Positions 358 through 19,395 of a DNA stretch of 64,000 nucleotides are shown piece by piece. The DNA comes from an uncultured Acidobacteriota bacterium. GTDB lineage: Bacteria > Acidobacteriota > Thermoanaerobaculia > UBA5066 > Gp7-AA6. The notes under the pieces are model-generated. The model had not been told where the DNA came from and made no database searches. It saw nothing but the letters and a program-made list of their open reading frames with translations. The translations under genes were made by a program, and so were the position numbers. The first letter of the stretch is position 1; the number at the start of each line of letters is the position of its first letter. The stretch is taken from contig CAVTON010000001.1 of assembly GCA_963736455.1 (NCBI GenBank), forward strand, positions 778,270-842,269. Direction: 5' to 3'.

Positions 358-377
358 TACAATGGAACGAATTCATG
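358..377 (+). promoter_or_regulatory. Candidate -10 element (TACAAT, 358-363) about 11 nt upstream of the ATG at 375; a short-leader or leaderless start for the glycosylation operon
   Basis: TACAAT hexamer in an otherwise GC-rich 145-nt divergent intergenic region between the partial ligase (start 230, minus) and the DUF2298 gene (375, plus). This is sequence-only inference. Confidence 0.25.
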
Positions 378-2546: not shown

Positions 2547-3691
2547 AGATCCTGATGGCGGTCGACTATTACCGACCGCACGTCTCGGGCCTCACGATCT
2601 ACGTCGAACAGCTGGCCGAGGGACTCGCCCGGCGCGGGCACGCGGTGCGCGTCCTCGCCCATCGCCACCAGCCGGATCTGCCGCTCGAATCGGACGAGAA
2701 CGGGGTCCGCGTCGTCCGCGCCCCCGTGGCCGCGCGAATCGGCAAGGCGCTCGTCTCTCCCGCGATCCTCGCCCGGGCGCTGCGGGAGATCCCGCGAGCG
2801 GACGTGCTTCACCTGCATGCGCCGCTCGTCAACGCCGTGCCGCTGGCGTTTCTCGGCGCGACGCTCCGGGTGCCGATCGTCGTGACCTTTCACTGCGACC
2901 TGCAGTCGCCCCACGGCATCGGCCAGCGCTTCGTCGAGGTTGTGGCGCGGACCTCCCAGAACTTCGCCCTCGACCGCGCCGCGCGCGTCATCACGTACAC
3001 GGAGGACTATGCCCGGCATACCCGGCCGCTCGACGACCGTCTCGAGAAGGTCGGCTGGATCCTTCCCCCGGTCGCCGACCCGCCCGTGACCGGCCGGAGC
3101 GCCGGGGAGGTCCGCGAGCGTCTCGGCGTGCGCGGATCTCCGGTCCTGCTCTTTCTCGGCCGCTTCACCGAGGAGAAGGGCCTCCCCGTGCTCGTCCAGG
3201 CGTTCGATGCCGTGCGACGACGATTTCCGAACGCGGCGCTGCTGCTCGCCGGCGCGAAGAACGTGCCGGGCGAGTCGGTCCTCGAGAGGATCGGTTCGCG
3301 GCTCGACGACCCCGGGTCGGGCGTGGTCGCACCGGGCATCGTGCCGCCCGGAGAGATCGCGGATCTCTTCACCATTTCGGACGTTCTCGTCCTGCCCTCG
3401 ATCAACGCGACCGAGTCCTTCGGGCTGGTCCAGGTCGAGGCCATGCTGCGCGGAGTCCCGTCCGTGGCCTCGGACCTGCCCGGCGTGCGCCAACCGGTCC
3501 AACTGACCGGAATGGGCGAGATCGCGCCGATCGGGGACGCCGCCGGCCTCGCCCGGCAGATTCTTCGGGTGCTGGAGACGCCGGCGCGCTATCGCCGCCC
3601 GCGCGAACAGATCCGGGCGCTCTTCGAGCCGGAACGCACGCTGCGGGAGTACGAGGTCGAGTACGCGACGGCCATGAAGGGGCAACGGTGA
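2543..3691 (+). CDS. Glycosyltransferase family 4 (GT4, GT-B fold)
   Basis: The in-frame ATG at 2543 overlaps the upstream stop (ATGA). MKILMAVDYYRPHVSGLTIYVEQLAEGLARRGHAV... has the GT4 N-terminal signature, and the C-terminal part has the EX7E-like region (INATESFGLVQVEAMLRGVP). The 230-2542 part of the 1153-aa ORF is an out-of-frame artefact. Confidence 0.8.
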   Translation: MKILMAVDYYRPHVSGLTIYVEQLAEGLARRGHAVRVLAHRHQPDLPLESDENGVRVVRAPVAARIGKALVSPAILARALREIPRADVLHLHAPLVNAVPLAFLGATLRVPIVVTFHCDLQSPHGIGQRFVEVVARTSQNFALDRAARVITYTEDYARHTRPLDDRLEKVGWILPPVADPPVTGRSAGEVRERLGVRGSPVLLFLGRFTEEKGLPVLVQAFDAVRRRFPNAALLLAGAKNVPGESVLERIGSRLDDPGSGVVAPGIVPPGEIADLFTISDVLVLPSINATESFGLVQVEAMLRGVPSVASDLPGVRQPVQLTGMGEIAPIGDAAGLARQILRVLETPARYRRPREQIRALFEPERTLREYEVEYATAMKGQR

Positions 3692-4503
3692 GGCCACCCG
3701 TTCCCGTCGAGCGGATCCTTCGCAGCCACCTGCGGGAAATGCCCCTTCACCGCGTCCTCATGCGCACCATCGAGGCGCAGATCCTGTCTCAGACCGATTT
3801 CGCGAGGCCGATCCTCGACGTGGGCTGCGGCGACGGGCACTTCGGTTCGGTTCTCTTTCCCGAAGGAGCCGACGTGGGCCTCGATCCGGGCCTCGCCGAC
3901 CTTGCGGAAGCGCGGGATCGGCGCGTCTATCGCTTCACGACGGCGGCCGACTCCGGCGCGATGCCCTTTGCCGACGGCGCATTCGGGTCCGTCGTCTCCA
4001 ACTGCGTCTTCGAACACATCCCCGAGATCGAGAAGACGATCGCCGAGATCGGCCGCGTTCTGAGGCCGGGGGGCACGTTCGCGACGACCCTCATCGGACA
4101 GCACTTCCGGGACTTCCTGACCGACGCGCGGGCCTGGCGCCGTCTCGGACTCTCGGCAGCGCATCGCGCCTACGTGGACTGGTTCAATCACAAGTCGGTT
4201 CACTTCCACTTCGACCCGCCCGAAATCTGGCGCGCGCGGTTCGAAGCGGCGGGCCTGGAGGTCGTGCGCTGGCGGTACTACATGTCGCCCGACGCCATGC
4301 ATGCCTTCCACCGATACCACTACACGAGCCTTCCCCATCTGGTCGCGCGCAAGCTGACGGGCCGGTGGGTGCCGCTGCCCGGGCTGATGGACAACGCGTT
4401 CTGGATCCAACGCCTGCGGCGCTGGGTCGACGAACCCGAGCCGGAGGCCGGAGCCTGCATCGCGTTCGTGTGTAGGAGAATGCCCCAATCTCCTGTAAAA
4501 TGA
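3688..4503 (+). CDS. Class I SAM-dependent methyltransferase (Methyltransf_11-like)
   Basis: The GTG start overlaps the GT4 stop (GTGA). ILDVGCGDGHF (motif I), FGSVVSNCVFEHIPE and LRPGGTF motifs are present. Confidence 0.8.
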   Translation: MRPPVPVERILRSHLREMPLHRVLMRTIEAQILSQTDFARPILDVGCGDGHFGSVLFPEGADVGLDPGLADLAEARDRRVYRFTTAADSGAMPFADGAFGSVVSNCVFEHIPEIEKTIAEIGRVLRPGGTFATTLIGQHFRDFLTDARAWRRLGLSAAHRAYVDWFNHKSVHFHFDPPEIWRARFEAAGLEVVRWRYYMSPDAMHAFHRYHYTSLPHLVARKLTGRWVPLPGLMDNAFWIQRLRRWVDEPEPEAGACIAFVCRRMPQSPVK

Positions 4504-4535
4504 TCGGCTTAGGCTAGTTTTTCGTTGACGAAAAC

Positions 4536-5603
4536 ATGCGATTTTTGATCACCGGCGGAGCCGGTTTCATCGGCTCGAACGCCGCCCGGCGACTCCGTGC
4601 CGAGAAGCACGACGTCGTCGTGCTGGATAGCTTCATGCGCCCCGCTTCCGTCTTCAACCGAGCGTGGCTCGAGGCCCTCGACCCGAAGATCCGGTTGATC
4701 GAAGGCGACGTCCGCGACTCCGCCGCCCTCGCCCGCGTGCTCGCCGAACCCTTCGACGCCGTGCTCCACCTGGCGGGCCAGGTCGCCGTGACGACGTCGA
4801 TCGTGGATCCGGTCACCGACTGGGAGATCAATGCCCTCGGAACGTTCCGCCTGCTCGAGGCCCTGCGCCGGCGATACGCCGACGCCCCGGAGAAGGCGCC
4901 CCTCCTCCTGTATGCCTCGACCAACAAGGTCTACGGCCACCTCTCGATGGGAGAGGTCGTTCGGGAGGGCCGCTGGGACTTCCGCAGCCTGCCCCAGGGC
5001 GTCTCCGAGACCGAGCCGCTCTCCTTCGAGTCGCCGTACGGCTGCTCGAAAGGCGCGGCCGACCAGTACGTCATCGATTACCACCGCAGCTTCGGCCTTC
5101 CGACGGTCGCCCTGAGGCAGTCGTGCATCTACGGTCCCCGCCAGTTCGGCGAGGAAGACCAGGGCTGGGTCGCCTGGTTCGCGCTGGCCGCGGCGTTCGG
5201 CCTCCCGATCACGTTCTACGGCGACGGCCTGCAGGTGCGGGACCTTCTCTGGGTGGACGATCTCGTCGCGCTGTATCTCGCCGCGGCGGCCGACCCGCAG
5301 AAGGTCGCCGGCCGCGCCTACAACGTCGGAGGCGGACCGGCCTTTCGCCTGTCGCTCAAGGAGCTGATGGTCCTCCTCGAGAAGAAGCTCGGCAAGCCGA
5401 TCCCGATCGGATCGGCGCCGGCGCGGCTCGGAGACCAGCCCGTTTTCTACTGCAACGTGGATCGCGCCGCGCAGGACCTCGGCTGGCGTCCCCGCGTTTC
5501 GCCGGACGAGGGCGTCGACCGGCTGCTTTCCTGGATCGGCGGGAGCCGGGAGGAGATCGGCCGCTTCCTGACCCGCAAGGGCCTGAAGATCGCGGCCCCC
5601 TAG
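4536..5603 (+). CDS. NAD-dependent epimerase/dehydratase (extended SDR) family sugar-nucleotide enzyme
   Basis: MRFLITGGAGFIGSN Rossmann motif and YGCSKGAADQY (the catalytic YxxxK); 355 aa. Confidence 0.85.
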   Translation: MRFLITGGAGFIGSNAARRLRAEKHDVVVLDSFMRPASVFNRAWLEALDPKIRLIEGDVRDSAALARVLAEPFDAVLHLAGQVAVTTSIVDPVTDWEINALGTFRLLEALRRRYADAPEKAPLLLYASTNKVYGHLSMGEVVREGRWDFRSLPQGVSETEPLSFESPYGCSKGAADQYVIDYHRSFGLPTVALRQSCIYGPRQFGEEDQGWVAWFALAAAFGLPITFYGDGLQVRDLLWVDDLVALYLAAAADPQKVAGRAYNVGGGPAFRLSLKELMVLLEKKLGKPIPIGSAPARLGDQPVFYCNVDRAAQDLGWRPRVSPDEGVDRLLSWIGGSREEIGRFLTRKGLKIAAP

Positions 5604-5609
5604 CCTCCC

Positions 5610-8600
5610 GTGCCCAACCGCATGTCCCGCGATCGCGCCCGCGCGATCCTCTTCCTCCTGCTGGCGGCGGGAGCGGTCCTGCGGTTCCAGGGCCTGAACT
5701 GGGACGACGGCCACCATCTGCATCCGGACGAGCGCTTCATCTCGATGGTCGAGGAGAAGCTCGCGTTCCCGAAGTCCGCCGCCGAGTACTTCGACGCGAA
5801 GCGTTCGACGCTCGACCCTTACAACCGCGGCGAAGGATCCTTCGTCTACGGCACGCTGCCGATCGTGGTCGCGAAGGTCATCGCCCCGCTCTTCGGCCGC
5901 CGCGGCTACGACGGCACCTACCTGATCGGCCGGGGTCTGTCCGCGCTATTCGACCTCTTCACGGTCTGGCTCGTTTACCGGATGGCGCGCCGATTCGCGC
6001 ATCGCCGCGCCTCGCTCGTCGCGGCCGCCCTCTCGGCTTTCTGCGTGCTCGGGATTCAGCTGTCCCACTTCTGGGCCGTGGACACCTTCCTCACGACGTT
6101 CACCGCGGCCGCGCTGCTCGGCTCGGTGCGCATCGCCCAGAGAAAGGCGGGCTGGGGCGGCTGGGCCTTGACGGGCGCCGCGATCGGCCTGGCCGTGGCG
6201 TGCAAGATCACCGCGCTCGCCCTGCTGCTGCCGCTCGGCGTCGCGGCGCTCGCCGGCGCCCTCCGGGAGAAGGACGGCTTCGGCGCGGGGTTTCTCCGGG
6301 CCGTTCCCCGCGTTCTCCTGGCGCTCGGCGCCGCCGCCGCGACCATCCGCGTCTTCCTTCCGCACATCTTTCTCGGCCCGAGCCCCCTTTCGTTCCGGCT
6401 CGATCCCCGCTGGATCGAGGACCTGCGGCGGCTGAAGGCGCTGACGAGCTCGGTCGCGGGCTTCCCTCCGGCCCTCCAGTGGGCGGGCCGAACGGTGCTC
6501 TTTCCGATCGAGAACCTCGTGCTCTGGGGAGCGGGCGTCTTCTTCGGCGTCACGGCGCTCGTCGCCCTCGCGTGGGCCTCCGCGGCCGTCTGGCGCCGCC
6601 GCGCCTGGGATCTCGCGCCGCTGTGCGCCTACGTCCTCTTCCTCTTCGCGTACCACGGGCTCACTCTCGTCAAGTCGATCCGCTATCTCTACCCCGCCTA
6701 CCCCGCGCTCGCGGTCCTCGCCGGCGTCTTGCTGTCGCGGTGGATCGAGAGCGCGCGCCGGCCGCGCCTGGCGCGCGCGACGGCCCTCGCCGTCGTCGGC
6801 GGGACCGCCCTGTGGGCGTTCGCCTTCACCGCGATCTACCGCCGTCCCCAGTCGCGCGTCACCGCCACGCGCTGGATCTACGCCCACGTCCCTCCGCGGG
6901 AGCGCATCGTCAACGAGTCGTGGGACGACGGTCTTCCCCTGCCCATGCCGGGTTACGACCCGGGCGTCTACTCGGGACCGCCGCAGCTTCCCCTTTTCGA
7001 CCCCGACTCGCGGGAGAAAGCGGAGATCCTCGTCCGCAGCCTCGCCGAGACCGACTGGGTCGCCGTCACGTCCAACCGCGTCTACGCCAACGTGACGCGG
7101 GTGCCCGATGTTTTCCCCATGTCGATCGCCTACTACCGCGCGCTCTTCGACGGCAGCCTCGGGTTCGATCGCGCCGCGGATTTCACGTCGTATCCCTCGC
7201 TCGGACCGCTCCGCTTCCCGGACGATCGGGCCGAGGAGCAGTTCACCGTCTACGACCACCCGCGGGTCCTGCTGTTCCACAAGACGGCGCGCTTCTCGAA
7301 GGAGGCCGCCCGCCGGCTCCTGCTTTCGGCGATCCCTCGGACGCCGCCCACGATGAACGAATGGGAGAAGTGGCCGCGGTCCCTGCGGCGCGTCAGCGCG
7401 CCCGTGCGCCCCGATCACCGGCCCGAGGCCGAGTCTTCGGCGCCTTCGGTCGAGCCGGGCGAGACGGCCGGAAGCTCGCTCTACGCCGCCGCCGCCTGGT
7501 ACCTCGCCCTCGCGCTCGTTGGCCTCCTCGCGTGGCCGATCGTCTGGACGCTCTTTCCCCGCCTCGGGGACCGGGGCTTCGGGCTCTCGCGCCTCCTCGG
7601 GCTCGTCTTCACGACGTACGCGATGACCGTCGCCGTCACGTTCCATGCGCTCGGCAACGGGCGCCGCGCGGCGCTCGGGTGCCTCGCCGTGCTCGCGATC
7701 GTTTCCGCGTGGATCGGGCTGCGCGAGCGCTACGATCTCGCGCGCTTTCTGCGCGAGAACCGGCGCGCGCTCCTTCAGAGCGAGATCGTCTTCGCCGTCG
7801 GATTCCTGCTCTTCCTGGGACTCCGCGCGCTGAACCCCGAAATCTACTGGGGCGAAAAGCCCATGGACTTCTCGATCCTGAACATCCTCGTGCGGACGCG
7901 GTCGCTTCCCGCTTCCGACCCGTGGCTCGCCGGCGCGCCCCTCGGCTATTACACGTTTGGCCAGGAGATGGTCGTCTTCCTGACGTTCCTGACGAACCTG
8001 TCCACGCGATTCACGTTCAACCTCGCGTTCGGATTCCTCGGGGGAACGATTCTCCAGGGCGCGTATTCGCTGGCCCGCAACTGGGGAGGGCGCCTCCGCG
8101 CCGGGATCGCGGGCGCCGGCCTGACCCTGCTTCTCGGAAACCTCTCGGGCCTGCGCGAGTGGCTCATCCACAAGCGCGCGCTCGACTGGGACTACTTCTG
8201 GGCGACCTCGCGGGTCGTCAAGGACACGATCAACGAGTACCCCTTCTGGAGCCTGAGCTTCGCCGATTTGCACGCCCACGTTCTGGCGATCCCGATCTTT
8301 CTCGCCTTCGCCACCGCGGCGCTCCACCTGGTGCGCCTGCACATGGCGCCGGCGACGGGAACGCGCCCGCGGCTCGTGGCGGCGGCGCTGCTCGGCTTTC
8401 TCGGGGCGGCGCAGGCCCTGACCAACGCCTGGGACGTGCCTCTGCTGGCAGGCCTGCTCGCGGTCACGGCCCTCGCCGCGGCGCTGGCGGCGCAGCGTTT
8501 CACCGTCGCCGGCGTCGGCCGGGCGCTCGGCGCGCTCGCGATCTCCGCGGCGTCCGGGTACCTGCTCGCCCGGCCGCTGTGGGTCCGGGCCGGCGGGGCG

Positions 8601-10526
8601 CCGGGAATCGGCCGCAACCTCGAGCCGTCGGCGTCCGGGATCGACCAGGCGACGGTCTTCGGCCTGTTCTTCTTCCTCGCCCTGGCGTGGTGGCTGGCCG
8701 CCTCCTCCGAGAAGCTCGCGGCGCGCGGCCTGGGCCGCGGGCCCCGGTGGACGATCGGACTCGTCACGTCGGCCGCCCTCGCCGCACTGCTGTTCCTGCG
8801 CCCGAACGTCTTTCTCGGATGCGGCGTCGCGCTCTTCCTCGCCGCGTTCTTCCTGCTCGCCGAGGACCGCGACGATCGCCTCGCCCTCGGCTTCCTCGCG
8901 ACGGCCTTCTTCCTGGTTCTCTTCTGCCAGCGCCTCTACATCTACGACCGGATGAACACGTTCTTCAAGCTCTACCTCGAGGCCTGGCTTCTCTTCGCGA
9001 TCGGCACGGCCGTCCTCGTGTTCCGGCGCAACCGCCGCGGCATCCTGGACCGGTGGATCGTACCGGCGCGGGCGGCGGCGGTCCTGCTCGCCGCCGCGGC
9101 TCTCTTCACGAGCGCCACGGCCGGGCGAGCCGCCGTCAGCCGCCATTTCGCGCCGTACGGCGGACCGACGCTCGACGGCCTCCGTTATCTCGAGACGTTC
9201 CATCCCGGCGAGTCGCGCGCCGTGGCGTGGCTCCGGCGCAGCGTCGCCGGCACGCCGGTCATTCTCGAAGCGCAGGGTCCCTCCTACCAGGACTTCGCCC
9301 GCATCTCGATGCTGACGGGTCTGCCGACCGTCCTCGGATGGGACTACCACGTCAAGCAGCGCGGCAACGCCGAGTCCGAGATCGAGTCTCGCCGCCAGGC
9401 CGTCCGGGCCATGTACTCCGATCCGAACGCGGCCCGGATCGAGAGCCTCCTCGCGCGCTACCGCGTCGGCTACGTGTACGTCGGCTGGCTCGAGAAAAAG
9501 ACGTATCCGCCGGCCGGACTGCAGAAGTTCCGGACGGACCAGGAGCGATTCCAGAGCGTCTACGAGAACCCCGAGGCGCAGGTCTACCGCGTCGTCGGCG
9601 GACCGGCCCAGGACGTGCTCCTCCCGGCCAGGGAGGCGCTGCCGGAAACCTCGGCCGGCGCCCCCGCCCCGCCCGAGGACGAGCCCGAGGAGCGGCCCGC
9701 CATCCAGGCCGCCGCCGAGCCCGGCGCCGCGGCGTGGCCGAACCTGCACGAGCCTCGCGGCGCGGCCGTGGACGACCGCGGCCGGATCTGGATCGCGGAC
9801 TTCGGCCATTCGCGCCTGCGCGTCTTCGATCCCGATGGCGGCTTCCTCGGCGGATGGGGCGGCCGCGGCGCGGGCGAGTTCGGCTTCAAGGAGCTCTGCG
9901 GCGTCGCGATCCGGGGGGACGCGCTGTACGTCGCCGACACCTGGAACGGGCGCATCCAGGCCTTCACCGTCGAGGGGGTCCTGCGCGCCACGGCCGGCGA
10001 GCTCTACGGGCCCCGCGGAATCACGGTCGCCCCGGACGGCCGAGTCTGGGTCAGCGACACCGGCAACCACCGCGTGGTCTCCTTCGACGCGCTCCTCCAG
10101 GACCGGCACTCGTACGGACACAAGGGCGCCGGCCCGGGCGAATTCTCGAGCCCGACCGGCATCGCGGCCTCGCCATCCGGCGAGATCTACGTCGGAGACA
10201 CCGGGAATCGGAGGGTCCAGGTGCTCGGCGCGGACGGGACTCTCCGCGGCGCGTTCCCGTTCCCCGGTTGGGGCCCGAACGTCGAGCCGCACCTCGCGGT
10301 CGACGCGGACGGGACGCTGTGGGCCACGGACCCCGGAACGAACTCCGTCGTGGCGCTCGACTCCTCCGGCAAGCTCCTGCGCCGGATCGACGCCGACGCC
10401 GCCGGACAGAAGTTCTCGAATCCCACGGGTATCGCGATCGACAGGAAAAACCGTATCCTCTATGTCGTCAACTCCGGAAACGCTTCGGTTTCGAAGATTC
10501 CGCTCGGCGAGAGGAGGGCTTCTTGA
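5610..10526 (+). CDS. Giant 1638-aa membrane protein: N-terminal GT-C fold (PMT_2/GT39-like) glycosyltransferase module + DUF2298 'YYY' module + C-terminal NHL-repeat beta-propeller
   Basis: The N-terminus has a DE motif in the first loop (HLHPDERF) and PMT_2-like helices. The middle has LGYYTFGQEMVVF ... INEYPFWSLSFADLHAHVLAIPIF, paralogous to gene 375-2546. The C-terminus (about 9740-10520) has repeated NHL units (GRIWIADFGHSRLRVFDPDG; LYVADTWNGRIQAF; VWVSDTGNHRVVSF; IYVGDTGNRRVQVL). GTG start at 5610 (ATG alternative at 5622). Confidence 0.75.
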   Translation: MPNRMSRDRARAILFLLLAAGAVLRFQGLNWDDGHHLHPDERFISMVEEKLAFPKSAAEYFDAKRSTLDPYNRGEGSFVYGTLPIVVAKVIAPLFGRRGYDGTYLIGRGLSALFDLFTVWLVYRMARRFAHRRASLVAAALSAFCVLGIQLSHFWAVDTFLTTFTAAALLGSVRIAQRKAGWGGWALTGAAIGLAVACKITALALLLPLGVAALAGALREKDGFGAGFLRAVPRVLLALGAAAATIRVFLPHIFLGPSPLSFRLDPRWIEDLRRLKALTSSVAGFPPALQWAGRTVLFPIENLVLWGAGVFFGVTALVALAWASAAVWRRRAWDLAPLCAYVLFLFAYHGLTLVKSIRYLYPAYPALAVLAGVLLSRWIESARRPRLARATALAVVGGTALWAFAFTAIYRRPQSRVTATRWIYAHVPPRERIVNESWDDGLPLPMPGYDPGVYSGPPQLPLFDPDSREKAEILVRSLAETDWVAVTSNRVYANVTRVPDVFPMSIAYYRALFDGSLGFDRAADFTSYPSLGPLRFPDDRAEEQFTVYDHPRVLLFHKTARFSKEAARRLLLSAIPRTPPTMNEWEKWPRSLRRVSAPVRPDHRPEAESSAPSVEPGETAGSSLYAAAAWYLALALVGLLAWPIVWTLFPRLGDRGFGLSRLLGLVFTTYAMTVAVTFHALGNGRRAALGCLAVLAIVSAWIGLRERYDLARFLRENRRALLQSEIVFAVGFLLFLGLRALNPEIYWGEKPMDFSILNILVRTRSLPASDPWLAGAPLGYYTFGQEMVVFLTFLTNLSTRFTFNLAFGFLGGTILQGAYSLARNWGGRLRAGIAGAGLTLLLGNLSGLREWLIHKRALDWDYFWATSRVVKDTINEYPFWSLSFADLHAHVLAIPIFLAFATAALHLVRLHMAPATGTRPRLVAAALLGFLGAAQALTNAWDVPLLAGLLAVTALAAALAAQRFTVAGVGRALGALAISAASGYLLARPLWVRAGGAPGIGRNLEPSASGIDQATVFGLFFFLALAWWLAASSEKLAARGLGRGPRWTIGLVTSAALAALLFLRPNVFLGCGVALFLAAFFLLAEDRDDRLALGFLATAFFLVLFCQRLYIYDRMNTFFKLYLEAWLLFAIGTAVLVFRRNRRGILDRWIVPARAAAVLLAAAALFTSATAGRAAVSRHFAPYGGPTLDGLRYLETFHPGESRAVAWLRRSVAGTPVILEAQGPSYQDFARISMLTGLPTVLGWDYHVKQRGNAESEIESRRQAVRAMYSDPNAARIESLLARYRVGYVYVGWLEKKTYPPAGLQKFRTDQERFQSVYENPEAQVYRVVGGPAQDVLLPAREALPETSAGAPAPPEDEPEERPAIQAAAEPGAAAWPNLHEPRGAAVDDRGRIWIADFGHSRLRVFDPDGGFLGGWGGRGAGEFGFKELCGVAIRGDALYVADTWNGRIQAFTVEGVLRATAGELYGPRGITVAPDGRVWVSDTGNHRVVSFDALLQDRHSYGHKGAGPGEFSSPTGIAASPSGEIYVGDTGNRRVQVLGADGTLRGAFPFPGWGPNVEPHLAVDADGTLWATDPGTNSVVALDSSGKLLRRIDADAAGQKFSNPTGIAIDRKNRILYVVNSGNASVSKIPLGERRAS

Positions 10527-13216
10527 GCGAACCCGCGGCGGCGGCCTCGGACCCTGCACGGCTGTCGGCCCGGGTCCTCCTGTTCATCGCGACGCTGGCC
10601 GTCGCCGCCGCCCTCACGCGCTTCTGGGCGCTCGGGGACCGGCCGCTTCACCACGACGAGTCGATCCATGCCTACCAGTCGTACACGCTCTCGAAGGGCG
10701 GCGACTGGCGCTACGACCCGGCCTACCACGGTCCGTTCCTCTACTACCTCAACGCCCTCGTCTACAAGATTGCGGGCGCCTCGAACGTCACGGCGAGAAC
10801 GATGCCGGCCATCTTCGGCCTGATCCTGATCGCGTTCGCGTGGCCCCTGAGGCGGTGGATCGGGAACGGCGCGGCGGCCGTCTATGCCGTCTTCGTCCTG
10901 CTCTCGCCCCACTTTGCCTACTTCTCGCGCTTCATCCGGGAGGACCTCTATTCGCTCGTGTTCACTCTCGGCACGATCGTCGCCTTCCAGCGGTTCCTCG
11001 AAACGGACCGCTCGAAGTGGCTGATGCTCTCGGCCACGGCGTTCGCGTTCGCCGGCGTGACCAAGGAGAACGCCTACATGACGGGCGTTCTCTTCGTCGT
11101 CTACGGCGTGTGGTGCGCCCTCCGCGGCGCGGGCACCGCGGAAGGACCCCGCCCGGGCCAGGCCGTGGGACGGGCGCTATCGTGGGTGCTGGAGCGGATC
11201 GTCCCGATTCTTTCGGCGGCGCTGCTCTTCCTGGTCATCTGGGCTGGCATGTACTCGGCCTTCGGGAAGTACCCGGGCGACTGGCTCGCGATTCCGAAGG
11301 CGATCAAGTACTGGATGGGCCAGCACTCGATCGCCCGGATCCCCGGTCCCTGGTACTACTACTTCCCGCAGCTCTTCTTCTACGACACGGCGATCGTCTT
11401 CGCCGCCCTCTTCGCATTCTCGCGGCGCCAGTGGAAGACGGATCCGTTCCTGCGCGTGCTCGCGCGCTCGGCGGGGCCGATCGTCGCGTACCTCGTCCTG
11501 CGCCGGTTCGTTCCGGTGTTCGCGCCCCGTGCGATGGTCTGGATTGCGGTCATCGTCGTCGCCACCCTGATCCTGACACTGCGGCGCCCGAGCGCCGAGC
11601 CCGGCGGCCTGACGCCCTTCGTGCAGTTCATCGCCTTCTGGACCGTGGGCTCGCTCGCGATCTATGGCTGGGCCCGCGAGAAGGTGCCCTGGCTCACGGT
11701 CCACCCGCTGCTTCCCCTGACCATGCTCGCCGGGCTCGGCGTCGTCCGGCTCTGGTCGCAGCGCCGGCGCGCCTGGGCCGCGATCGCCCTCGCCGTCACC
11801 ATGCTCTTCGCCGTGGTCAACACGCGCGGGGCGTATCTGGCCTGCTTCCGGTACGGCGCGCACGACGTCGAGAAAGAGCCCGGGCACGCCGAGCTGCTCG
11901 CCTACGTTCAGACGACGAGGGACCTCGTCCGCGCGCTCCGGTCGGTCGAGATCGCGAAGGCGCGCATCCCCGCCGGTCAGCCGGTCGTGACCGTCGTCGG
12001 CGAGGCCGTGTGGCCGCTGACCTGGTACCTGAGGGACGACAACGTCACGTGGGCCTCGCGCATCGATCAGGCCTCGACACCCGTCATCATCGCCGACTGG
12101 GACCCGGAAGGGACGCTCGAAAAGCAGCTCGCGCCCAAGTACGACGCCAAACGGGTGCCGATCCGAGCCTGGTGGTTCCCGGACCCGCTCAAGGAGGGAA
12201 ACCTCGAGCGCCCCACGGTCGGCGACTGGCTGAGGCTATGGTGGGACCACCAGATCTGGGGAACGATCGGTTCCCAGGACGCGACGTTCTTCGTCCGCAA
12301 GGACCTCGCGGGCTCGGGTCCTCTCGAGCCGCTCCAGTTGACCGTGCAGGACACGTCCTCGCGCGACTACCCGGGCGAGGCGACGGAGCTGCCCGCGCCG
12401 CGTTCGATCGGGGTGGCGGGCAACGGACCGGCCCAGTTCGCGGAGCCGCGCGGCGTGGCGACGGACCCGAGCGGCAACGTCTACGTCGCCGACACGAAGA
12501 ACAGCCGCATCGAAGTCCTGGACGCCGCCGGCAACTTCCTGCGCGCGTTCGGGACGAAGGGCCCCGGTGACGGCCAGCTGAACGAGCCGTGCGGCGTCGC
12601 CGTCGGCCCCAATGGCGACGTCTACGTGGCCGACACGTGGAACCATCGCGTCGCGCGCTTCGGACCGGACGGGCAGTGGCGGGGCGCATGGGTCGATCCC
12701 GAGCGGGGCTTCTTCGGCCCGCGCGGCCTCACGCTCTCCGGCGGCTCGCTCTACGTCTCGGACACCGGAAACAAACGCATCGTCCGCTTCGACACCGCGA
12801 CGGGATCGGTGACCGGCCGCTGGGGCGGCGCCGGCTCCGGGCCGAGCCAGTTCGTCGAGCCCGTCGGTCTCGCGGCGGACCCGTCCGGCCGCATCTACGT
12901 CGCCGACACCGGAAACCACCGGATCCAGGTCTTCGACGCGGACGGCAAGTTCCTTCGCCAGTTCCCGGTCTTCGGCTGGAAAGACTTCTACACCGAGCCG
13001 TACCTCACGATCGGGCCATCCGACGCCGTGTTCGCGACCGACTCCTGGAAGGGGCGGATCGCGCAGTACGACGCGTCGGGGGCGCTCGTCCGCTCCTACA
13101 AGGCGGACGGACTGAAGCGTCCGACCGGGATCACGCGGGACGCCTTCGGACACGTGATCGTCACCGACCGCGACATGAACCGCGTCTTCATCTGGCCGAT
13201 CGACGCGTTTCGCTAA
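10523..13216 (+). CDS. TIGR03663-like GT-C fold (PMT_2 family) membrane glycosyltransferase fused to a C-terminal six-bladed NHL-repeat domain
   Basis: The only start downstream of the in-frame stop (TGA 9832-9834) is TTG at 10523, preceded by GGAGG and overlapping the upstream stop (TTGA). HHDESIHAYQSYTLSKGGDWRYDPAYHGPFLYY has the GT-C DE motif. From about 12440 there are NHL repeats (NVYVADTKNSRIEVLD; VYVADTWNHRVARF; LYVSDTGNKRIVRF; IYVADTGNHRIQVF). The upstream part of the 2850-aa ORF (4664-10522) is an alternative-frame artefact. Confidence 0.75.
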   Translation: MSEPAAAASDPARLSARVLLFIATLAVAAALTRFWALGDRPLHHDESIHAYQSYTLSKGGDWRYDPAYHGPFLYYLNALVYKIAGASNVTARTMPAIFGLILIAFAWPLRRWIGNGAAAVYAVFVLLSPHFAYFSRFIREDLYSLVFTLGTIVAFQRFLETDRSKWLMLSATAFAFAGVTKENAYMTGVLFVVYGVWCALRGAGTAEGPRPGQAVGRALSWVLERIVPILSAALLFLVIWAGMYSAFGKYPGDWLAIPKAIKYWMGQHSIARIPGPWYYYFPQLFFYDTAIVFAALFAFSRRQWKTDPFLRVLARSAGPIVAYLVLRRFVPVFAPRAMVWIAVIVVATLILTLRRPSAEPGGLTPFVQFIAFWTVGSLAIYGWAREKVPWLTVHPLLPLTMLAGLGVVRLWSQRRRAWAAIALAVTMLFAVVNTRGAYLACFRYGAHDVEKEPGHAELLAYVQTTRDLVRALRSVEIAKARIPAGQPVVTVVGEAVWPLTWYLRDDNVTWASRIDQASTPVIIADWDPEGTLEKQLAPKYDAKRVPIRAWWFPDPLKEGNLERPTVGDWLRLWWDHQIWGTIGSQDATFFVRKDLAGSGPLEPLQLTVQDTSSRDYPGEATELPAPRSIGVAGNGPAQFAEPRGVATDPSGNVYVADTKNSRIEVLDAAGNFLRAFGTKGPGDGQLNEPCGVAVGPNGDVYVADTWNHRVARFGPDGQWRGAWVDPERGFFGPRGLTLSGGSLYVSDTGNKRIVRFDTATGSVTGRWGGAGSGPSQFVEPVGLAADPSGRIYVADTGNHRIQVFDADGKFLRQFPVFGWKDFYTEPYLTIGPSDAVFATDSWKGRIAQYDASGALVRSYKADGLKRPTGITRDAFGHVIVTDRDMNRVFIWPIDAFR

Positions 13217-13223
13217 AGGCGCG

Positions 13224-15458
13224 ATGTCGAGCGTCCGCCGTTCCGACCCTGCCGCCGTAGATCCGCACCACTGGGCGTTGCTCGCCGCGACCGCGCTCCT
13301 CGCGTCCGTCGGTCCGGCGATCGTGGTCGCGGACCGCTGGTTCTCCCGGCGCAACACCGTCACGTTCCTGACCGCATTCGCGGATCGCTTCCCGTGGCTC
13401 GCCGACATCAACCTCCCTGTCTACGCGGCCGTCTTCGCGGCGGCGTTCGTGATTCTCGTCGCGCTGGCGGGACTTCGCCCTTCGGCGGGCCTTTCCGCCT
13501 GGAGGAACCGGATCGCCTTCGCCGAACGGCCGCGGCGCCCGAGTGCCCGCGGCCGCCAGCGGTCGCTGGCGACCTGGGTGGCCCTGTGCGGAGGAGCGGC
13601 AGCCACGCTGCTCTTCGCCCGCGTCGTGGTCGCGGGACGGATCCCCGGTCCGGGTCTCCTCACGGCGCTCGCGGCCCTCGGATTCGGCATGCTGCTGCGC
13701 GAGGTCTCGCTCGGCGCCCTCCGCCGTTTGTGGAACCGCAAGCGCGCCAATGTCGTCTCCATCGTCGCCGCCCACGTCACCACCATCCTCGCCTTCGCGA
13801 GCGTCCACACGTATCACCGCTTCGAGCGGCCGCTGATCGCCCTCGCCGTCCTGGCCGCCGCGAATCTCGCGGCACGCTGGAAGAAGACGGGACCCATCCC
13901 GCTGCTCGTTCTGGCCGCCGTCGTCCTCTATCTGTGGCGAATCGATTCCTGGTGGTTTGCGCTCGTGGGCGACGAGTACCGCAACTTCGACATCGCCTCG
14001 CTGATCCTGAAGCAGCACGACCGCGCCTACGTGCTTTCGCACCTCTTCCAGCTCGAAGGCGGACTCGAAGGCCTCGACCCCTACGCCTGTTCCCTCGTGC
14101 AGGCGGCCTCGATGCGACTGCTCGGCGTCAACAGCTTCGGCTGGAGGTTCAGCAGCCTCTACTGCGCGGCCCTGGCGCTGCCTTTCTTCTTCCGCTTCCT
14201 GCGGACCTTTCTCTCGCGGCGCGCGACGCTCGCGACGACCGTCGTGATGGCCGCGTCGCACTACATCATCGCCTTCGGCAAGATCGGCTACGACAAGTTC
14301 CAGGCGTATCTCGCCATGGCAATGCTCCTCGCCGCGGCGGCGTGCGCCGTGCGGACGCGCCGCATGATCGCCTTCGTGGGACTGGGATTCTCGGCGGCCC
14401 TCTGCTTCTACGTCTATCCCGCGGCGCTCTACGTCCTCCCGCTGCCCGCCTTTCTCCTGCTTCTCTACGTCCCCCCGAAGAGCCGCGCGGCGCTGGCCCG
14501 ATGGGGGATGGCGGGCCTCGTCTGCGCGCTGACGATCTTCCCTCTCCCCTTCCAGCCGACCTATTTCCCCGGCAAGAGGCCCGGCACCGTCTACTACAAC
14601 CCCGAGCTCATGAGCTCGACGAGCCGGCTCGTCCGCCATTTCTGGTCGAACGGCGTCTACGCCGCCTATTCGCCGGTCCTCCTCGGCTCCGAGGACCACT
14701 TCGTCACCAGCTCCTACCTCGACCCGCTGGCGGGGGCCCTCTTTCTCGTCGGAATCGCCTCGGCGCTCTGGCTCGTCCGGCGGGACCGCTTCGTCGCGTT
14801 TCTCGTCGTCAGCCTCGGATTCCTGCTGCTGCTCGGCGGCACGACGCACGACCGCGAATACCCGCCCACGACGCGTTTCTTCCTGCTGGTGCCCCTCTTC
14901 TGCATGATCGCGACCGCCGGGCTGTGGCGCCTCTTCGGACTGGCCGGCGAGAGCCGCTTCTCGACTCGGGCGCCCCGCGTCGCCCTGGCCGTGGTCCTTC
15001 TCGCCATCGTGACCCTCAACGTCGTCCAGGCCCATGTCGTGTCGGTCCGGCGCAGCGACGGCTACCAGGTCCTCGATCCCCTCGTGGTCCGTCTCGCGAC
15101 GCGCGCCGAAACCCTGCCTCCGGGACAACGGCCCCGGCTCGTCATGCTGGCGCCGGCCGCCACCGACGGCGACGGCATCGTCGTGATGCTCGGCGTCTAC
15201 GATCTGAAGGAGTCGGCCAGGCGGTTCGCGACCGTCGGGCTCGGCGCCGATGACTCGGGATTCCCCGAGCCGGCTCTCCTTTCGGAGCGGGACGCGGCGA
15301 TCTTCGTGGCTCCGCAGGTCCCCGCGCGGGCCCGGGCGCGCCTCGAGGGCGCGCTCGGTGCGGCCGGACGGGTCCCCTGCGCCGTGCGCACGACGACGGG
15401 CCAGGAGCGCTTCCGGCTCTGGACGTTTCCGGGCACGCCTTCGCTCTGCGCGGACTGA
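13224..15458 (+). CDS. Polytopic membrane protein, probable GT-C fold glycosyltransferase (ArnT/PMT_2-like)
   Basis: 744 aa with more than 10 predicted TM helices and an early-loop VGDEYRNF motif; last gene of the plus-strand island, 8 nt after the previous stop. Family assignment is by motif resemblance only. Confidence 0.55.
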   Translation: MSSVRRSDPAAVDPHHWALLAATALLASVGPAIVVADRWFSRRNTVTFLTAFADRFPWLADINLPVYAAVFAAAFVILVALAGLRPSAGLSAWRNRIAFAERPRRPSARGRQRSLATWVALCGGAAATLLFARVVVAGRIPGPGLLTALAALGFGMLLREVSLGALRRLWNRKRANVVSIVAAHVTTILAFASVHTYHRFERPLIALAVLAAANLAARWKKTGPIPLLVLAAVVLYLWRIDSWWFALVGDEYRNFDIASLILKQHDRAYVLSHLFQLEGGLEGLDPYACSLVQAASMRLLGVNSFGWRFSSLYCAALALPFFFRFLRTFLSRRATLATTVVMAASHYIIAFGKIGYDKFQAYLAMAMLLAAAACAVRTRRMIAFVGLGFSAALCFYVYPAALYVLPLPAFLLLLYVPPKSRAALARWGMAGLVCALTIFPLPFQPTYFPGKRPGTVYYNPELMSSTSRLVRHFWSNGVYAAYSPVLLGSEDHFVTSSYLDPLAGALFLVGIASALWLVRRDRFVAFLVVSLGFLLLLGGTTHDREYPPTTRFFLLVPLFCMIATAGLWRLFGLAGESRFSTRAPRVALAVVLLAIVTLNVVQAHVVSVRRSDGYQVLDPLVVRLATRAETLPPGQRPRLVMLAPAATDGDGIVVMLGVYDLKESARRFATVGLGADDSGFPEPALLSERDAAIFVAPQVPARARARLEGALGAAGRVPCAVRTTTGQERFRLWTFPGTPSLCAD

Positions 15459-15495: not shown

Positions 15496-16065
15496 CTACA
15501 GGAACTTCAGCGTGCGAACGTGAATGTGACCGTCGCCGCCGGCCGGATTCCCGATCTCGACGCGGACCTTCTGGACAGGACCGGAGAGTCCCGGGAATTC
15601 GAGCTTGACGGTCGGATCCGGAGGCAGCGCGTGAAAGACCTGCGAGAAGGTCTTTTCCCCTCCCGCCGCAAGCGTCACCACGCACCTCAGGTCGATGTCC
15701 ATCGTGGCGGTCGTCACCTCGATGCCCTTGAGCATCCGGGGCTTCGAAAAAGTGAAAACGTACACGGCCGGATTGGCCTTCGTCGTGCGGGCGAGAGTGT
15801 CCAGCTTGTCGTCGAACAGATCCTGGACGCGCCCGATGTCGAGCGCGGAGTGCTCGACGGTCACGCTCTGACCGTCGATGTCCATGACGTCGCGGACCAT
15901 GCCCGCCGGGCTCCCTTCCCCGGATGCCGTAGGCACGGGGGCCGGAGCGGCCGAGGAGGCCGGCGCCGCGGACTCGCCCTTGCGACATCCCGGAAGGCTC
16001 AGCGCCAGTGCGACAACCGTCAGAGCGCCGCGCGCGAGCACACCGGTGCGGGTGTTCATCCTCAA
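15496..16065 (-). CDS. Lipoprotein, hypothetical
   Basis: Signal peptide with lipobox (ALALSLPGC); 189 aa; no recognisable domain. Confidence 0.55.
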   Translation of the reverse strand: MRMNTRTGVLARGALTVVALALSLPGCRKGESAAPASSAAPAPVPTASGEGSPAGMVRDVMDIDGQSVTVEHSALDIGRVQDLFDDKLDTLARTTKANPAVYVFTFSKPRMLKGIEVTTATMDIDLRCVVTLAAGGEKTFSQVFHALPPDPTVKLEFPGLSGPVQKVRVEIGNPAGGDGHIHVRTLKFL

Positions 16066-16254: not shown

Positions 16255-17037
16255 TCAGTCCGGCCAGTAGAGCCCGAGCGCCTTGGCGAGAAAGATCGCC
16301 ATCTGCCGGCGATTGACGGGGTTGTCCGGACAGTAGTTCCCGCCGCCGCAGCCGCCCGTGATTCCCGAGGCGGCGAGCGCCTCGATGTACTGGTACCCGA
16401 AGTCGGTCGTCGGCACGTCGCCGAACGTCGGCGTGGCCGGCGCCGGGCTGACGACGGTGTGCCACCAGACCTCGACGGAGCCGAAGTTGACGGAGCCGTC
16501 CACCGGCGCGCCGTCCTGCTCGTAGACGTCGAGCTGGAGGCTCGTGGCCGCGTTCGTCAAGAGCTGGTATCCCAGGGTGCTCGGGCTGTAATCCATGGCG
16601 CAGGGCGTGGTCGGGCCATGGGCGGAACTGACGAAGTCCTCGACCGTCACGTACGTCGAGCCGTCGGCCGGCTGGAAGTAGACCGCCACGCCGAGGTTCG
16701 CCCCCGCCTGATCGCAGGAACCCAGGCCGATCTGATCGATGACGGCGCCCGCAGGAAGAATGAGCGGCGCCGTGTTGTCGGCCGGGATCGCCAGGTCATA
16801 GCGAAAGAACGTATCCACATCCGAGGAGTAGCCCACTCCCGAGTCGATCGGGACAAAGCCGACGGACGAGACGGTCGACACGTTGGTCGTTCCGCCGAAC
16901 CCCGCAGGGCCCGCCGCCCTCGCACTCGGCTTTTGACGGACGCCGATCCGGCTGTGGACATGGGTCCGATGAGAGGCGCCGAGAGCGACGCCCGAGAGCA
17001 GAAGGGAGACCCCGACCGCCAGAATCTTTTTGGACAC
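16255..17037 (-). CDS. Secreted protein with C-terminal SLH-like (S-layer homology-like) domain
   Basis: Signal peptide. The C-terminus TPTFGDVPTTDFGYQYIEALAASGITGGCGGGNYCPDNPVNRRQMAIFLAKALGL fits the SLH pattern (F-DV...I..L...GI..G...P...VTR.Q.A.FL). It is a paralog of 17158-17955. Confidence 0.6.
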   Translation of the reverse strand: MSKKILAVGVSLLLSGVALGASHRTHVHSRIGVRQKPSARAAGPAGFGGTTNVSTVSSVGFVPIDSGVGYSSDVDTFFRYDLAIPADNTAPLILPAGAVIDQIGLGSCDQAGANLGVAVYFQPADGSTYVTVEDFVSSAHGPTTPCAMDYSPSTLGYQLLTNAATSLQLDVYEQDGAPVDGSVNFGSVEVWWHTVVSPAPATPTFGDVPTTDFGYQYIEALAASGITGGCGGGNYCPDNPVNRRQMAIFLAKALGLYWPD

Positions 17038-17157: not shown

Positions 17158-17955
17158 CTACTCCCACTGGAGGCCGAGGGCCTTCGCCAGAAACACCGCC
17201 ATCTGACGCCGGGTCAGCGTCGCATCGGGGCAGTAGTTGCCGCCGCCGCATCCCGCCGTGATCCCGGAGCTGACCAGGGCTTCGATGTACTGGAAGCCCG
17301 GATCCGTCGTCGGGACGTCGCCAAAGGTGGGCGTCATGGGCGCCGGGCTGACTTGCAGAACGTAGTGGATGATGGCCCCGGCAATCCCCGTCGAGCCGTC
17401 GATGTCGGGAACGAAGACCACCAGGACGAACTGATTGTTGTTATTGTCGACCGTGAAGGGCGTGGTCAGCGAGGCCGAAAATCCGCCGCATCCGCCGCTG
17501 CCGGAGCTGGACACGGAGGTGATCAGCGTGGCGCCCGTTCCGTCCCAGCTCGTCGAGACGAGGTTCATGATGACGTCGTCGGTGGCGTTGGTGTCGCAGG
17601 CGTCGAGCTCTACACTCGTGATCGACGCGCCGGAGGGCAAGTGAGGCGAGGCGACGAAAGCGCTTCCTGCATTCGCCGTGGGATACCGGGCGTAAATGAG
17701 CCCAACCTGGGAGAGGTCGCTGTAGGTCGTGTCCGTATTGGCCGGGGAGAATTCGGTGGAGGACACCCGATAGAAGCTCGTATAGGTGGTGCCGTAAGTC
17801 TGGGGAAGTCTCGGAGGGGCGGCGATCGACGGAGCGGACGGTTGAGCCAGAATGGTCGGCGCACCCGCCGCGAGATTCTGTCCCTGGAGGCCCGAGACCG
17901 CAAGAAGCGACAGAAAGGCCGAAGCGAAGACAGCCCTCTTCACGGATATCGACAT
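17158..17955 (-). CDS. Secreted protein with C-terminal SLH-like domain (paralog of 16255-17037)
   Basis: Signal peptide; C-terminal 55 aa nearly identical to the neighbouring paralog (MTPTFGDVPTTDPGFQYIEALVSSGITAGCGGGNYCPDATLTRRQMAVFLAKALGL); AAGGAG-like RBS (aaggagaaaaaagatg). Confidence 0.6.
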   Translation of the reverse strand: MSISVKRAVFASAFLSLLAVSGLQGQNLAAGAPTILAQPSAPSIAAPPRLPQTYGTTYTSFYRVSSTEFSPANTDTTYSDLSQVGLIYARYPTANAGSAFVASPHLPSGASITSVELDACDTNATDDVIMNLVSTSWDGTGATLITSVSSSGSGGCGGFSASLTTPFTVDNNNNQFVLVVFVPDIDGSTGIAGAIIHYVLQVSPAPMTPTFGDVPTTDPGFQYIEALVSSGITAGCGGGNYCPDATLTRRQMAVFLAKALGLQWE

Positions 17956-18036: not shown

Positions 18037-19395
18037 TCAGCTCCGGAACACCTTCTCCTCGGTCCCGTCCAGCCAGCGATCCACGAGCTCGACGCCCTGC
18101 ATGAGCGAGTGATCCTGGTTGCCGATCTCGTACTTCCACGAGCCGAAGCGGCCTCGCGAGAAGATCCCGCGAGGCTCGAGATAGGCGTGGATCGTCTCGA
18201 GCGCCGGATTCCGATCGACCGACGGGATCGGGTACGAGTGGCCGGCGTGGATGAGAAAGACCGTCTCGATCAGCGGAAGATCGGACGCTTGAAGGATTCC
18301 CTCGGCGACGAGGCCGTCCACGACGGCCTGGCCGAAGTCGCCCTCGGGCAGCGGCTTGAACTTCGAGTAGGACGTTTCGGTCAGGACCGAGAAGTACTTC
18401 GACGTGTCGCCGCCCGGAACGATCTCGGGAGAGTAGTTGGACAGGTACGTCATCCGGTAGAACGGCGTCTTCGGGTTCGGAAAGTAGATCCAGTTCTTGT
18501 CCGACGGCGAGGGGCGGCGCAGGCCGACGCCGGCCGAGAACAGCCGGTTGAAGAGGAGCGACTGCGCCGCCGCCCGGACCTTCGCCGGCGCGTGCGTCAG
18601 GCGCGCGACGAACGCGTCCAGGGGAATCGTCGTCAGCAACCGGTCGTAAGAGCGCGTCGTTCCGTCGGTGAACGCGATCTCGCGCTTCTCCTCGTCCACT
18701 GAGATCGCGCGCTTGTGGAAACGGATGCGGTCGTCGCCGAGAAACGGCACGACTCCCTTCCAGAGCCCGAGCGTTCCGCCGTGGAGGGGGTAGCCGAACT
18801 TCGCGTTGGGACCCCAGTCGGTCGTCTTCGGCACGACCGTCGTCTCGATCGCCTTGCGCCAGTCGACGACCGACACGCGCTCGGCGATCCAGTAGTAGCC
18901 CATCTCCTTCAGGGGCGTCGCCCAGACCTTGAAGTTGTAGGGGTTCATGAAGTGCTTCGCGACGCCCGATCCGAACTTCGCGAGGACCCACTCCTCGAAG
19001 TTGCGAAAGGCGCGGTCCTTGTCGATCGTCTGCGACTCGACGAGGCCGATCAGGCACTCGAGCATCGCTTTCTCGGGCAGCGACGAAAGGTGGTTCTGAA
19101 ACGGATACCGGACGTACTTGTCCTCGAACTTGATCCAGCTCTCGCGGTCGATCCAGCGAATCTGATCGCCGAGGACCTTCCCGAGGAAATCGTTGAAGTA
19201 CTTGTACCCCGAAAAGATGATGTGGCCCGACACGTCCCACGTCCATCCCTTCGGGTCCTTGAAGCTCGTGGCGAGGCCGCCGACCTGTCCCGACCTCTCG
19301 AAGATCTCGAAAGCGTCCTCGCCGCGCTCGCGGAGCCGGTACGCGGCGCCGAGGCCCGTCGGGCCCGCGCCGAGAATGACGATGCCGCCGCTCAC
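18037..19395 (-). CDS. glf: UDP-galactopyranose mutase, eukaryote-type (UDP-Galp to UDP-Galf)
   Basis: ILGAGPTGLGAAYRL FAD motif; GHIIFSGYKYFNDFL; YPFQNHLSSLP; FEEWVLAKFGSGVAKHFMNPYNFKVWA; C-terminal SRGRFGSWKYEIGNQDHSLMQGVELVD. These closely track the fungal/kinetoplastid-type UGM signature blocks. Confidence 0.85.
   Translation of the reverse strand: MSGGIVILGAGPTGLGAAYRLRERGEDAFEIFERSGQVGGLATSFKDPKGWTWDVSGHIIFSGYKYFNDFLGKVLGDQIRWIDRESWIKFEDKYVRYPFQNHLSSLPEKAMLECLIGLVESQTIDKDRAFRNFEEWVLAKFGSGVAKHFMNPYNFKVWATPLKEMGYYWIAERVSVVDWRKAIETTVVPKTTDWGPNAKFGYPLHGGTLGLWKGVVPFLGDDRIRFHKRAISVDEEKREIAFTDGTTRSYDRLLTTIPLDAFVARLTHAPAKVRAAAQSLLFNRLFSAGVGLRRPSPSDKNWIYFPNPKTPFYRMTYLSNYSPEIVPGGDTSKYFSVLTETSYSKFKPLPEGDFGQAVVDGLVAEGILQASDLPLIETVFLIHAGHSYPIPSVDRNPALETIHAYLEPRGIFSRGRFGSWKYEIGNQDHSLMQGVELVDRWLDGTEEKVFRS

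Follow-up and report, generated by a model that had tools for sequence, protein, structure and literature searches.

NHL beta-propellers joined to TIGR03662- and TIGR03663-family membrane proteins in a putative envelope-glycosylation cluster of Thermoanaerobaculia

Several membrane glycosyltransferases of the GT-C fold carry accessory domains outside the cytoplasm. In the mycobacterial enzymes EmbC and AftD and in the GT136 protein ORF12 from Citrobacter youngae, a beta-rich module in the periplasm comes after the polytopic GT-C domain and in those systems binds the acceptor polysaccharide (PMC3044687; PMC11127046): the C-terminal carbohydrate-binding module (CBM) of EmbC binds arabinan (PMC3044687), AftD also has CBMs, and the CBM of GT136 ORF12 binds its O-antigen acceptor (PMC11127046). 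A polyprenyl-phosphate phosphoribosyl synthase of the UbiA type supplies their donor (PMC3044687; PMC11127046). TMTC1-4, O-mannosyltransferases of the PMT clan of GT-C enzymes, end in C-terminal lumenal tetratricopeptide (TPR) repeats (PMC7801869; PMC6801728). The locus described here lies in a 64,000-nucleotide stretch of contig CAVTON010000001.1 (the window), from a host genome of 70% G+C, and encodes two adjacent membrane proteins, called A and B below, each of which ends in a six-bladed NHL propeller. That GT-C enzymes can bear accessory domains outside the cytoplasm is an established principle; the fusion with an NHL propeller is real and widespread, and in principle unsurprising. We read the locus as part of a conserved Thermoanaerobaculia envelope-glycosylation cluster, in which the propellers would act as non-catalytic docking modules for an acceptor or a partner, and give this reading a probability of about 0.5.

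In comparison with EmbC, AftD and GT136 ORF12, the general layout is shared and a UbiA-like gene is found nearby in the window, whereas the modules themselves are Ig-like or lectin-like CBMs in those enzymes and six-bladed NHL propellers here, with no sequence relationship between them. The TMTC proteins combine an 11-transmembrane (TM) PMT-type GT-C domain, the layout also seen in the N-terminal module of A, with a long extracytoplasmic repeat domain; they differ in being eukaryotic, in having no YYY module and in carrying TPR solenoids, which select protein substrates. ArnT (GT83) and ALG12 (GT22), which lack a propeller, show only 11-19% identity, and nothing here points to their substrates, lipid A and the N-glycan precursor. 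The partner of the extracellular NHL sensor in PknD is a kinase, unlike in A and B, and the NHL domains of TRIM proteins, with RING/B-box partners, have cytosolic RNA or protein as their ligands. Closest to B by family is Agl23 of Haloarcula hispanica, the TIGR03663 exemplar: B matches the family model, bears the DE and HGP signatures of the family and has a neighbouring TIGR03662 gene and an Agl22-like GT2 in its locus; Agl23 is described as a flippase, and B is bacterial and faces a diderm periplasm. In liposomes the purified protein, HhAgl23, translocates M5GN2-PP-Dol, and HhAgl23 also rescues yeast rft1-delta (PMC11182771). No description of an NHL domain fused to a GT-C protein was found in the literature searched (NHL with GT-C, DUF2298, TIGR03662/TIGR03663, mannosyltransferase, Acidobacteria), and no functional study of DUF2298 in those parts of the literature that the search reached.

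Two adjacent membrane proteins with C-terminal propellers

The modules of the two proteins are as follows, with the basis of each assignment in brackets.
5610-10526, + strand: protein A, 1638 aa, PMT_2, DUF2298/Chlor_Arch_YYY and NHL in one open reading frame (reading frame, Pfam, TIGR03662)
5610-6839, + strand: A residues 1-410, 11-TM PMT_2-type GT-C module with cytoplasmic N-terminus (Pfam PMT_2; charge-free segments, alternating Arg/Lys-rich loops)
6840-7472, + strand: A residues 411-621, soluble domain linking both membrane modules, predicted periplasmic (no hydrophobic segments; side from the 11-TM count)
7473-9140, + strand: A residues 622-1177, DUF2298/YYY membrane module of about 16 TM helices (TIGR03662; AlphaFold2 model; loop charges; conservation)
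9141-9734, + strand: A residues 1178-1375, periplasmic alpha/beta domain (1178-1330), then flexible linker rich in Pro, Glu and Ala (1331-1375) (secondary structure; sequence)
9735-10523, + strand: A residues 1376-1638, six-bladed NHL propeller (Pfam NHL)
10523-13216, + strand: protein B, 897 aa, TIGR03663 (Agl23-family) membrane protein with NHL (Pfam, TIGR03663, N-termini of orthologues)
10523-11857, + strand: B residues 1-445, 13-TM domain of GT-C fold (model)
11858-12400, + strand: B residues 446-626, periplasmic alpha/beta domain of the TIGR03663 core and linker with conserved VQDTSxRDYP (model; conservation; NHL-less representatives of about 600 aa)
12401-13213, + strand: B residues 627-897, six-bladed NHL propeller (Pfam, PDB match, model)

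The C-terminal repeats of both proteins, which a preliminary description of this DNA had recognised from the sequence as NHL units, are true six-bladed NHL propellers. Both score far above the gathering threshold of Pfam NHL (PF01436; A, E=1.8e-35, 119.6 bits; B, E=1e-44, 148.8 bits; cut-off 20), the best match of B among PDB sequences is the NHL domain of TRIM71 (E=1e-63), and the models of both propellers show a closed six-bladed fold superposable on solved NHL domains. They are the sole NHL propellers of the window and share 41% identity in register over 248 residues. Both reading frames lie on the + strand, and their ends, 10526 and 13216, are those given by the same description; its start, 9740, corresponds to the beginning of the propeller of A (nt 9735) and is not a gene start.

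Related loci were defined as the best 80 of 204 species-representative genomes that encode a relative, with a "long" subset of 49. In B the mean identity over 68 loci was 66.8% for the propeller vs 63.0% for the membrane domain, and in A the propeller (64.2%) compared similarly with the membrane domains (65.3%); by these sequence identities the propellers are under constraint equal to that of the membrane domains. A-type and B-type propellers fall into separate clades of a rough neighbour-joining distance tree, in which the B-type nests among divergent TIGR03663-NHL proteins. The idea that the propeller of A is a recent copy of that of B finds no support in the separate clades of this rough tree. 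Beyond the repeat consensus, W706, R734, W819 and P826 (B numbering) are the only positions conserved in every propeller type, the first three being invariant; speculatively, W706 and W819 might suit sugar stacking. The linkers ahead of the propellers also differ: that of A (9600-9734) has about 45 residues, is rich in Pro, Glu and Ala and is modelled with a predicted local distance difference test score (pLDDT) below 50, in particular at model residues 752-767, and that of B (12323-12400) holds the conserved VQDTSxRDYP, a motif that suggests a fixed propeller orientation.

Docking is favoured over catalysis because the TRIM NHL domains, which are not enzymes, are the closest structural matches, with enzymatic propellers scoring clearly lower, and because the four residues named above are the only conserved extras across all propeller types. 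An enzymatic role, of the lyase, lactonase or esterase type known from peptidyl-alpha-hydroxyglycine lyase (PAL), Vgb and SMP-30/gluconolactonase, by which the propellers would trim or modify the glycan after its transfer, appears improbable, since matches to enzymatic propellers are much weaker than those to TRIM NHL and mostly under the family cut-offs, and since the conserved positions (NHL consensus, two Trp and one Arg) include no conserved set of metal ligands.

Protein A is a triple fusion of an 11-TM PMT_2 module, a 16-TM DUF2298/"YYY" (TIGR03662) module and an NHL propeller. Apart from its NHL score, Pfam gives 55.9 bits for PMT_2 and 270 bits for DUF2298, and the match to TIGR03662 reaches 444.4 bits (cut-off 300.25). 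Asp40-Glu41 (nt 5727-5732) follows TM1 in the predicted first periplasmic loop. The AlphaFold2 model covering the YYY module has a pLDDT of 87.6, and the module contains the conserved loops GEKPMD, GYYTFG (SYYYFG in the family consensus) and EYPFWSLSFADLHAH. Residues 742-787 (7833-7970) and 879-892 (8244-8285) are strongly conserved YYY loops, NPEIYWGEKPMDF...GYYTFG and FWSLSFADLHAHVL, predicted to be periplasmic; from their sequence, the conserved loops look like a catalytic or metal-binding site. Alignment of the YYY module with the membrane profile of B by hhalign gave no match, and the YYY family profile, from a family without a solved structure, found no significant match in the PDB, so that a GT-C fold of the module that bears the propeller of A is not demonstrated. 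The earlier designation of both as GT-C proteins is therefore right for the fold of B and for the N-terminal PMT_2 module of A; it does not extend to the YYY module that the propeller of A follows.

Protein B matches TIGR03663 with 323.5 bits (cut-off 126.25) over model positions 4-433 of 435. The model of its membrane domain matches solved GT-C structures, ArnT among them, and the alpha/beta domain spans residues 446-620 of the model, after the 13 TM helices. Invariant in 69 homologues are H43-H44-D45-E46 directly past TM1 (D45-E46, nt 10655-10660), H69-G70-P71 in the first periplasmic loop, and R136/R139. The TIGRFAMs account of TIGR03663, which comprises an invariant DE, an HGP, two Arg near the N-terminus and co-occurrence with a TIGR03662 gene, agrees with the locus of B in all of these points.

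The NCBI name of TIGR03663, "flippase activity-associated protein Agl23", raises the alternative that B mainly flips or scrambles polyprenyl-phosphate sugars, as archaeal Agl23 is reported to do, and that its propeller hands over the flipped donor or couples it to downstream periplasmic transferases and does not bind the acceptor of a reaction of B. This alternative draws on the 323 bits of B on a model named after Agl23, on the flipping of M5GN2-PP-Dol by HhAgl23 (PMC11182771) and on a GT2, conserved nearby, whose best match is a haloarchaeal dolichyl-phosphate hexose transferase; set against these are the complete GT-C fold of B with its invariant Asp-Glu past TM1, a motif essential for transfer in characterised GT-C enzymes, and the consideration that a membrane-embedded lipid is unlikely to be handled by a soluble propeller. 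We regard it as doubtful.

Distribution and variants of the fusion

At least 80 species of Thermoanaerobaculia have the fusion, and the synteny around it is conserved. All of the 80 best genomes are Acidobacteriota or Thermoanaerobaculia metagenome-assembled genomes, in which the match, on complete contigs, reaches B residue ~891-897. A protein search with B residues 1-620 returned 603 matches; among the 120 listed of these (down to 55% identity), nearly all are proteins of ~820-930 aa with NHL, and the named ones belong to Thermoanaerobaculia or Acidobacteriota. The order solo YYY, GT4, (methyltransferase), (SDR), A, B is kept in nearly all of the 80 loci with enough flanking sequence, and A is a single reading frame of ~1620-1670 aa in most of them. 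A one-off fusion or an assembly artefact was ruled out by the presence of the reading frames, with conserved junctions, in at least 80 species genomes. Public-database entries for these proteins bear automatic names that disregard the propeller.

The combinations of modules vary. YYY with NHL and without PMT_2 was found in three related loci (L032, L033, L049) and in many database proteins of ~1030-1100 aa, and PMT_2 with YYY and without NHL exists as well. Locus L028 encodes, at 2648-5482, a 945-aa paralogue in which PMT_2 and its periplasmic domain are joined straight to NHL without YYY, in addition to a full-length orthologue of A. Over the 80 loci the partner of NHL is TIGR03663 in 75 cases, YYY in 62 and PMT_2 in five, the remaining propellers being free-standing. 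The propeller is an exchangeable unit of this system, in relatives fused to TIGR03663, YYY or PMT_2 or present as a free lipoprotein of the same cluster.

When 1.84 billion cluster representatives were searched exhaustively, 4524 relatives of TIGR03663 (E<=1e-3) were found, and a C-terminal NHL propeller is present in 53 of the 150 best TIGR03663 representatives (29-40% identity); NHL among the aligned representatives (n=134) was scored by local hmmsearch with an NHL hidden Markov model built from alignment A1. Named examples among the NHL-bearing representatives are Chloroflexota (MBI3287095.1, HLJ65980.1). The preliminary description had called the architecture undescribed among characterised PMT/ArnT/AftA-type enzymes; neither a characterised GT-C enzyme nor a paper with the fusion was found in the literature searched, and in sequence collections the architecture is common. 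Representatives without NHL (~560-600 aa) align to B residues 16-596 and so cover the core of B, from which we conclude that this core is complete in itself and that the propeller has been added to it. Pfam searches of ten long representatives without a strong NHL match, together with P0372, which has one, found only PMT_2/PMT, weak NHL in two and one sub-threshold Fibrinogen_BP, and no alternative accessory domain. One of the Chloroflexota proteins, a divergent TIGR03663-NHL protein (GCA_035295425.1; locus L081, 8075-12766), is next to a second PMT_2 gene. It lacks a YYY neighbour and has SecA, RF-1 and a sigma factor in its surroundings; this unrelated neighbourhood implies that the fusion travels independently of the other genes of the acidobacterial cluster.

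Membrane sidedness and exported paralogues

Both propellers are predicted, from the models, to lie on the periplasmic face, where the acidic first loop is also placed, as the preliminary description had supposed for the propellers. Topology was derived from the helices of the models and the positive-inside rule. In B, Arg/Lys-rich loops (RRW110, ETDRSK160, 205-225, SRRQWK300, RRPS355, QRRR414) alternate with conserved loops on the other side (the first extracytoplasmic loop with D45-E46, SRFIRED, TKE, QH..R..GPWYYY, AREKVPW), an alternation that implies an inside N-terminus, 13 TM helices and an outside C-terminus. A begins with 11 TM helices (N-in, C-out); further on, the YYY module enters and leaves outside with its ~16 helices and has FRRNRRGILDRW as its last cytoplasmic loop. 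GT-C enzymes typically have the N-terminus inside, an odd number of TM helices, the C-terminus outside and an acidic DxD/DE motif past TM1 in the first extracytoplasmic loop, and an 11-TM 1-6-4 topology has been described among them (PMC6801728). The topologies of A and B conform to this rule, and the PMT_2 module of A fits the 11-TM variant.

Further support for the periplasmic placement comes from free copies. Extra NHL genes, one or two each, are present in 38 of the 80 related loci as free-standing reading frames of ~335-350 aa that start with either one N-terminal anchor or a lipoprotein signal (e.g. ...LALAPALAC-KKGE, ...AAAASAC-RKPE), behind which comes a linker rich in Pro and Ala; a lipobox pattern was seen in at least 26 of these genes and a single-TM anchor in others. 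Because these paralogous free genes bear lipoprotein signals, the propeller type is one that is exported. The extra genes lie between A and B or just past B (for instance L003, 12636-13736; L041, 5215-6003 and 8363-9421; L039, ~10420-11433), and relatives have up to four propellers per cluster. The free copies also speak to a sensory role, in which the propellers would gate the membrane enzymes on a periplasmic signal, as proposed for the extracellular NHL of PknD: the lipoproteins have nothing to regulate in cis, and A and B possess no signalling output domain, which makes such a role very improbable.

The number of propellers is relevant to another explanation, by which they are assembly or scaffold modules that bind each other or envelope proteins and thereby unite the membrane enzymes as one periplasmic machine or tether it to the wall or outer membrane. 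With two to four fused and free NHL paralogues per cluster, A- and B-type propellers in distinct, separately conserved clades that are not interchangeable, translationally coupled A and B, and TRIM-type NHL domains that are typically interaction modules, this is possible; the Chloroflexota TIGR03663-NHL protein without a YYY-NHL neighbour shows that a fixed pair of A and B propellers is not required, and we consider the explanation unlikely. A bolder proposal, held more tentatively still, is suggested by the fusion of NHL to three membrane modules and its occurrence as free lipoproteins in two to four copies per cluster. It envisages a dedicated periplasmic recognition apparatus for an undescribed, lineage-wide glycosylation system in Thermoanaerobaculia and Chloroflexota, for example a bacterial equivalent of the domain-specific O-glycosylation of proteins by TMTC-type enzymes or a multi-propeller platform threading an envelope polymer past several lipid-donor-dependent transferases.

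Cluster context and proposed role

The other genes of the cluster and of the adjoining convergent operon are as follows.
375-2546, + strand: solo DUF2298/TIGR03662 "YYY" membrane protein, 723 aa, first gene of the operon (Pfam and NCBIfam; syntenic in relatives)
2543-3691, + strand: GT4 glycosyltransferase (Pfam; overlapping or closely spaced genes; synteny)
3688-4503, + strand: S-adenosylmethionine (SAM) methyltransferase (Pfam; overlapping or closely spaced genes; synteny)
4536-5603, + strand: SDR sugar epimerase/dehydratase (Pfam; overlapping or closely spaced genes; synteny)
13224-15458, + strand: protein C, 744 aa, PMT_2-type GT-C without propeller, 7 nt past B (Pfam PMT_2, 28.6 bits)
18037-19395, - strand: FAD oxidoreductase, amine-oxidase-like (best Pfam/NCBIfam match, below curated cut-off)
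19392-20195, - strand: GT2 polyprenyl-phosphate hexose synthase-like gene (best match a haloarchaeal dolichyl-phosphate hexose transferase, below curated cut-off)
20185-21129, - strand: UbiA-family prenyl-phosphate phosphoribosyltransferase-like gene (best family match decaprenyl-phosphate phosphoribosyltransferase, 182 bits, under the cut-off of 234)

The tightly packed + strand operon (375-15458) runs from solo YYY, which scores 501 bits on TIGR03662, through GT4, the methyltransferase, SDR, A and B to C, the last being present in just nine of the 49 long related loci. A may start at GTG 5610 or ATG 5622. The start codon of B is TTG, preceded by GAGAGGAGG and overlapping the stop of A (TTGA), and orthologues of B have ATG at this position. 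When the five membrane modules of the operon were compared by BLAST, the sole related pair was the solo YYY protein and the YYY module of A (34% identity).

The convergent operon of UbiA, GT2 and oxidoreductase genes (18037-21129) adjoins B in 42-47 of the 49 long loci, and its GT2 is usually 72-97% identical across loci. Judged from its sequences, the trio may make lipid-linked pentose or hexose donors, and it is similar to the part of extracytoplasmic glycosylation systems in which donors are made (PMC11127046). Between B and this operon the - strand encodes two paralogous small proteins with one C-terminal S-layer homology (SLH) domain each (16255-17037 and 17158-17955; about 20 of the 49 loci), which are possibly wall-anchored proteins or candidate substrates, and a 189-aa protein (15496-16065; 30 of the 49 loci) that matches nothing in Pfam or NCBIfam and whose signal, LSLPGC, resembles that of a lipoprotein.

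Taken as an envelope-glycosylation cluster of Thermoanaerobaculia (Acidobacteriota), the locus would have at its centre, in the inner membrane, the long-noted TIGR03662/TIGR03663 partner pair. The cytoplasmic GT2, the UbiA-type enzyme, GT4, SDR and the methyltransferase would supply polyprenyl-phosphate-linked sugars, which A, B, C and the solo YYY protein would use at the periplasmic face, and the propellers would hold the acceptor, an envelope glycan or a folded protein, or a partner subunit beside the membrane active sites, as the CBMs do in EmbC, AftD and GT136 and the TPRs in TMTC. It is by this analogy that the propellers may bind an acceptor; a built-in extracytoplasmic acceptor-binding domain, suggested in the preliminary description, is already an established theme among GT-C enzymes through the CBMs of EmbC, AftD and GT136 ORF12 and the TPRs of TMTC.

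A number of points weigh against docking in a glycosylation cluster. NHL-type propellers can be enzymes, as in PAL, Vgb lyase and the lactonases. Agl23, the only TIGR03663 member studied, is reported to be a translocator of lipid-linked sugars, and by analogy B may itself glycosylate nothing. The YYY module adjoining the propeller of A has no detectable GT-C similarity, and the sidedness of both propellers is a prediction worked out by hand. In favour of a transfer role, the GT2 and UbiA-like genes nearby are the sole hint, one of context; the donor pathway is assigned from sub-threshold family matches, and the adjacency could be plain lineage synteny. Ligand, acceptor and donor are alike proposed by analogy, which makes the propellers candidate docking modules only.

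TIGR03662 and TIGR03663 are large families, for which the functional work on either consists of the studies of Haloarcula Agl23, and the organisms concerned here are uncultured soil and sediment bacteria. The propellers, both fused and as free lipoproteins, offer a soluble, easily expressed handle with which the acceptor or partner could be fished out and the pathway defined, and they bear on the question whether proteins of the Agl23 type act as transferases, as flippases or in both ways. With the fusion, a beta-propeller joins the accessory domains already known from GT-C enzymes (CBM, TPR, MIR), although the principle is not new. Should the periplasmic recognition apparatus prove true, its characterisation would settle the function of the TIGR03662/TIGR03663 pair.

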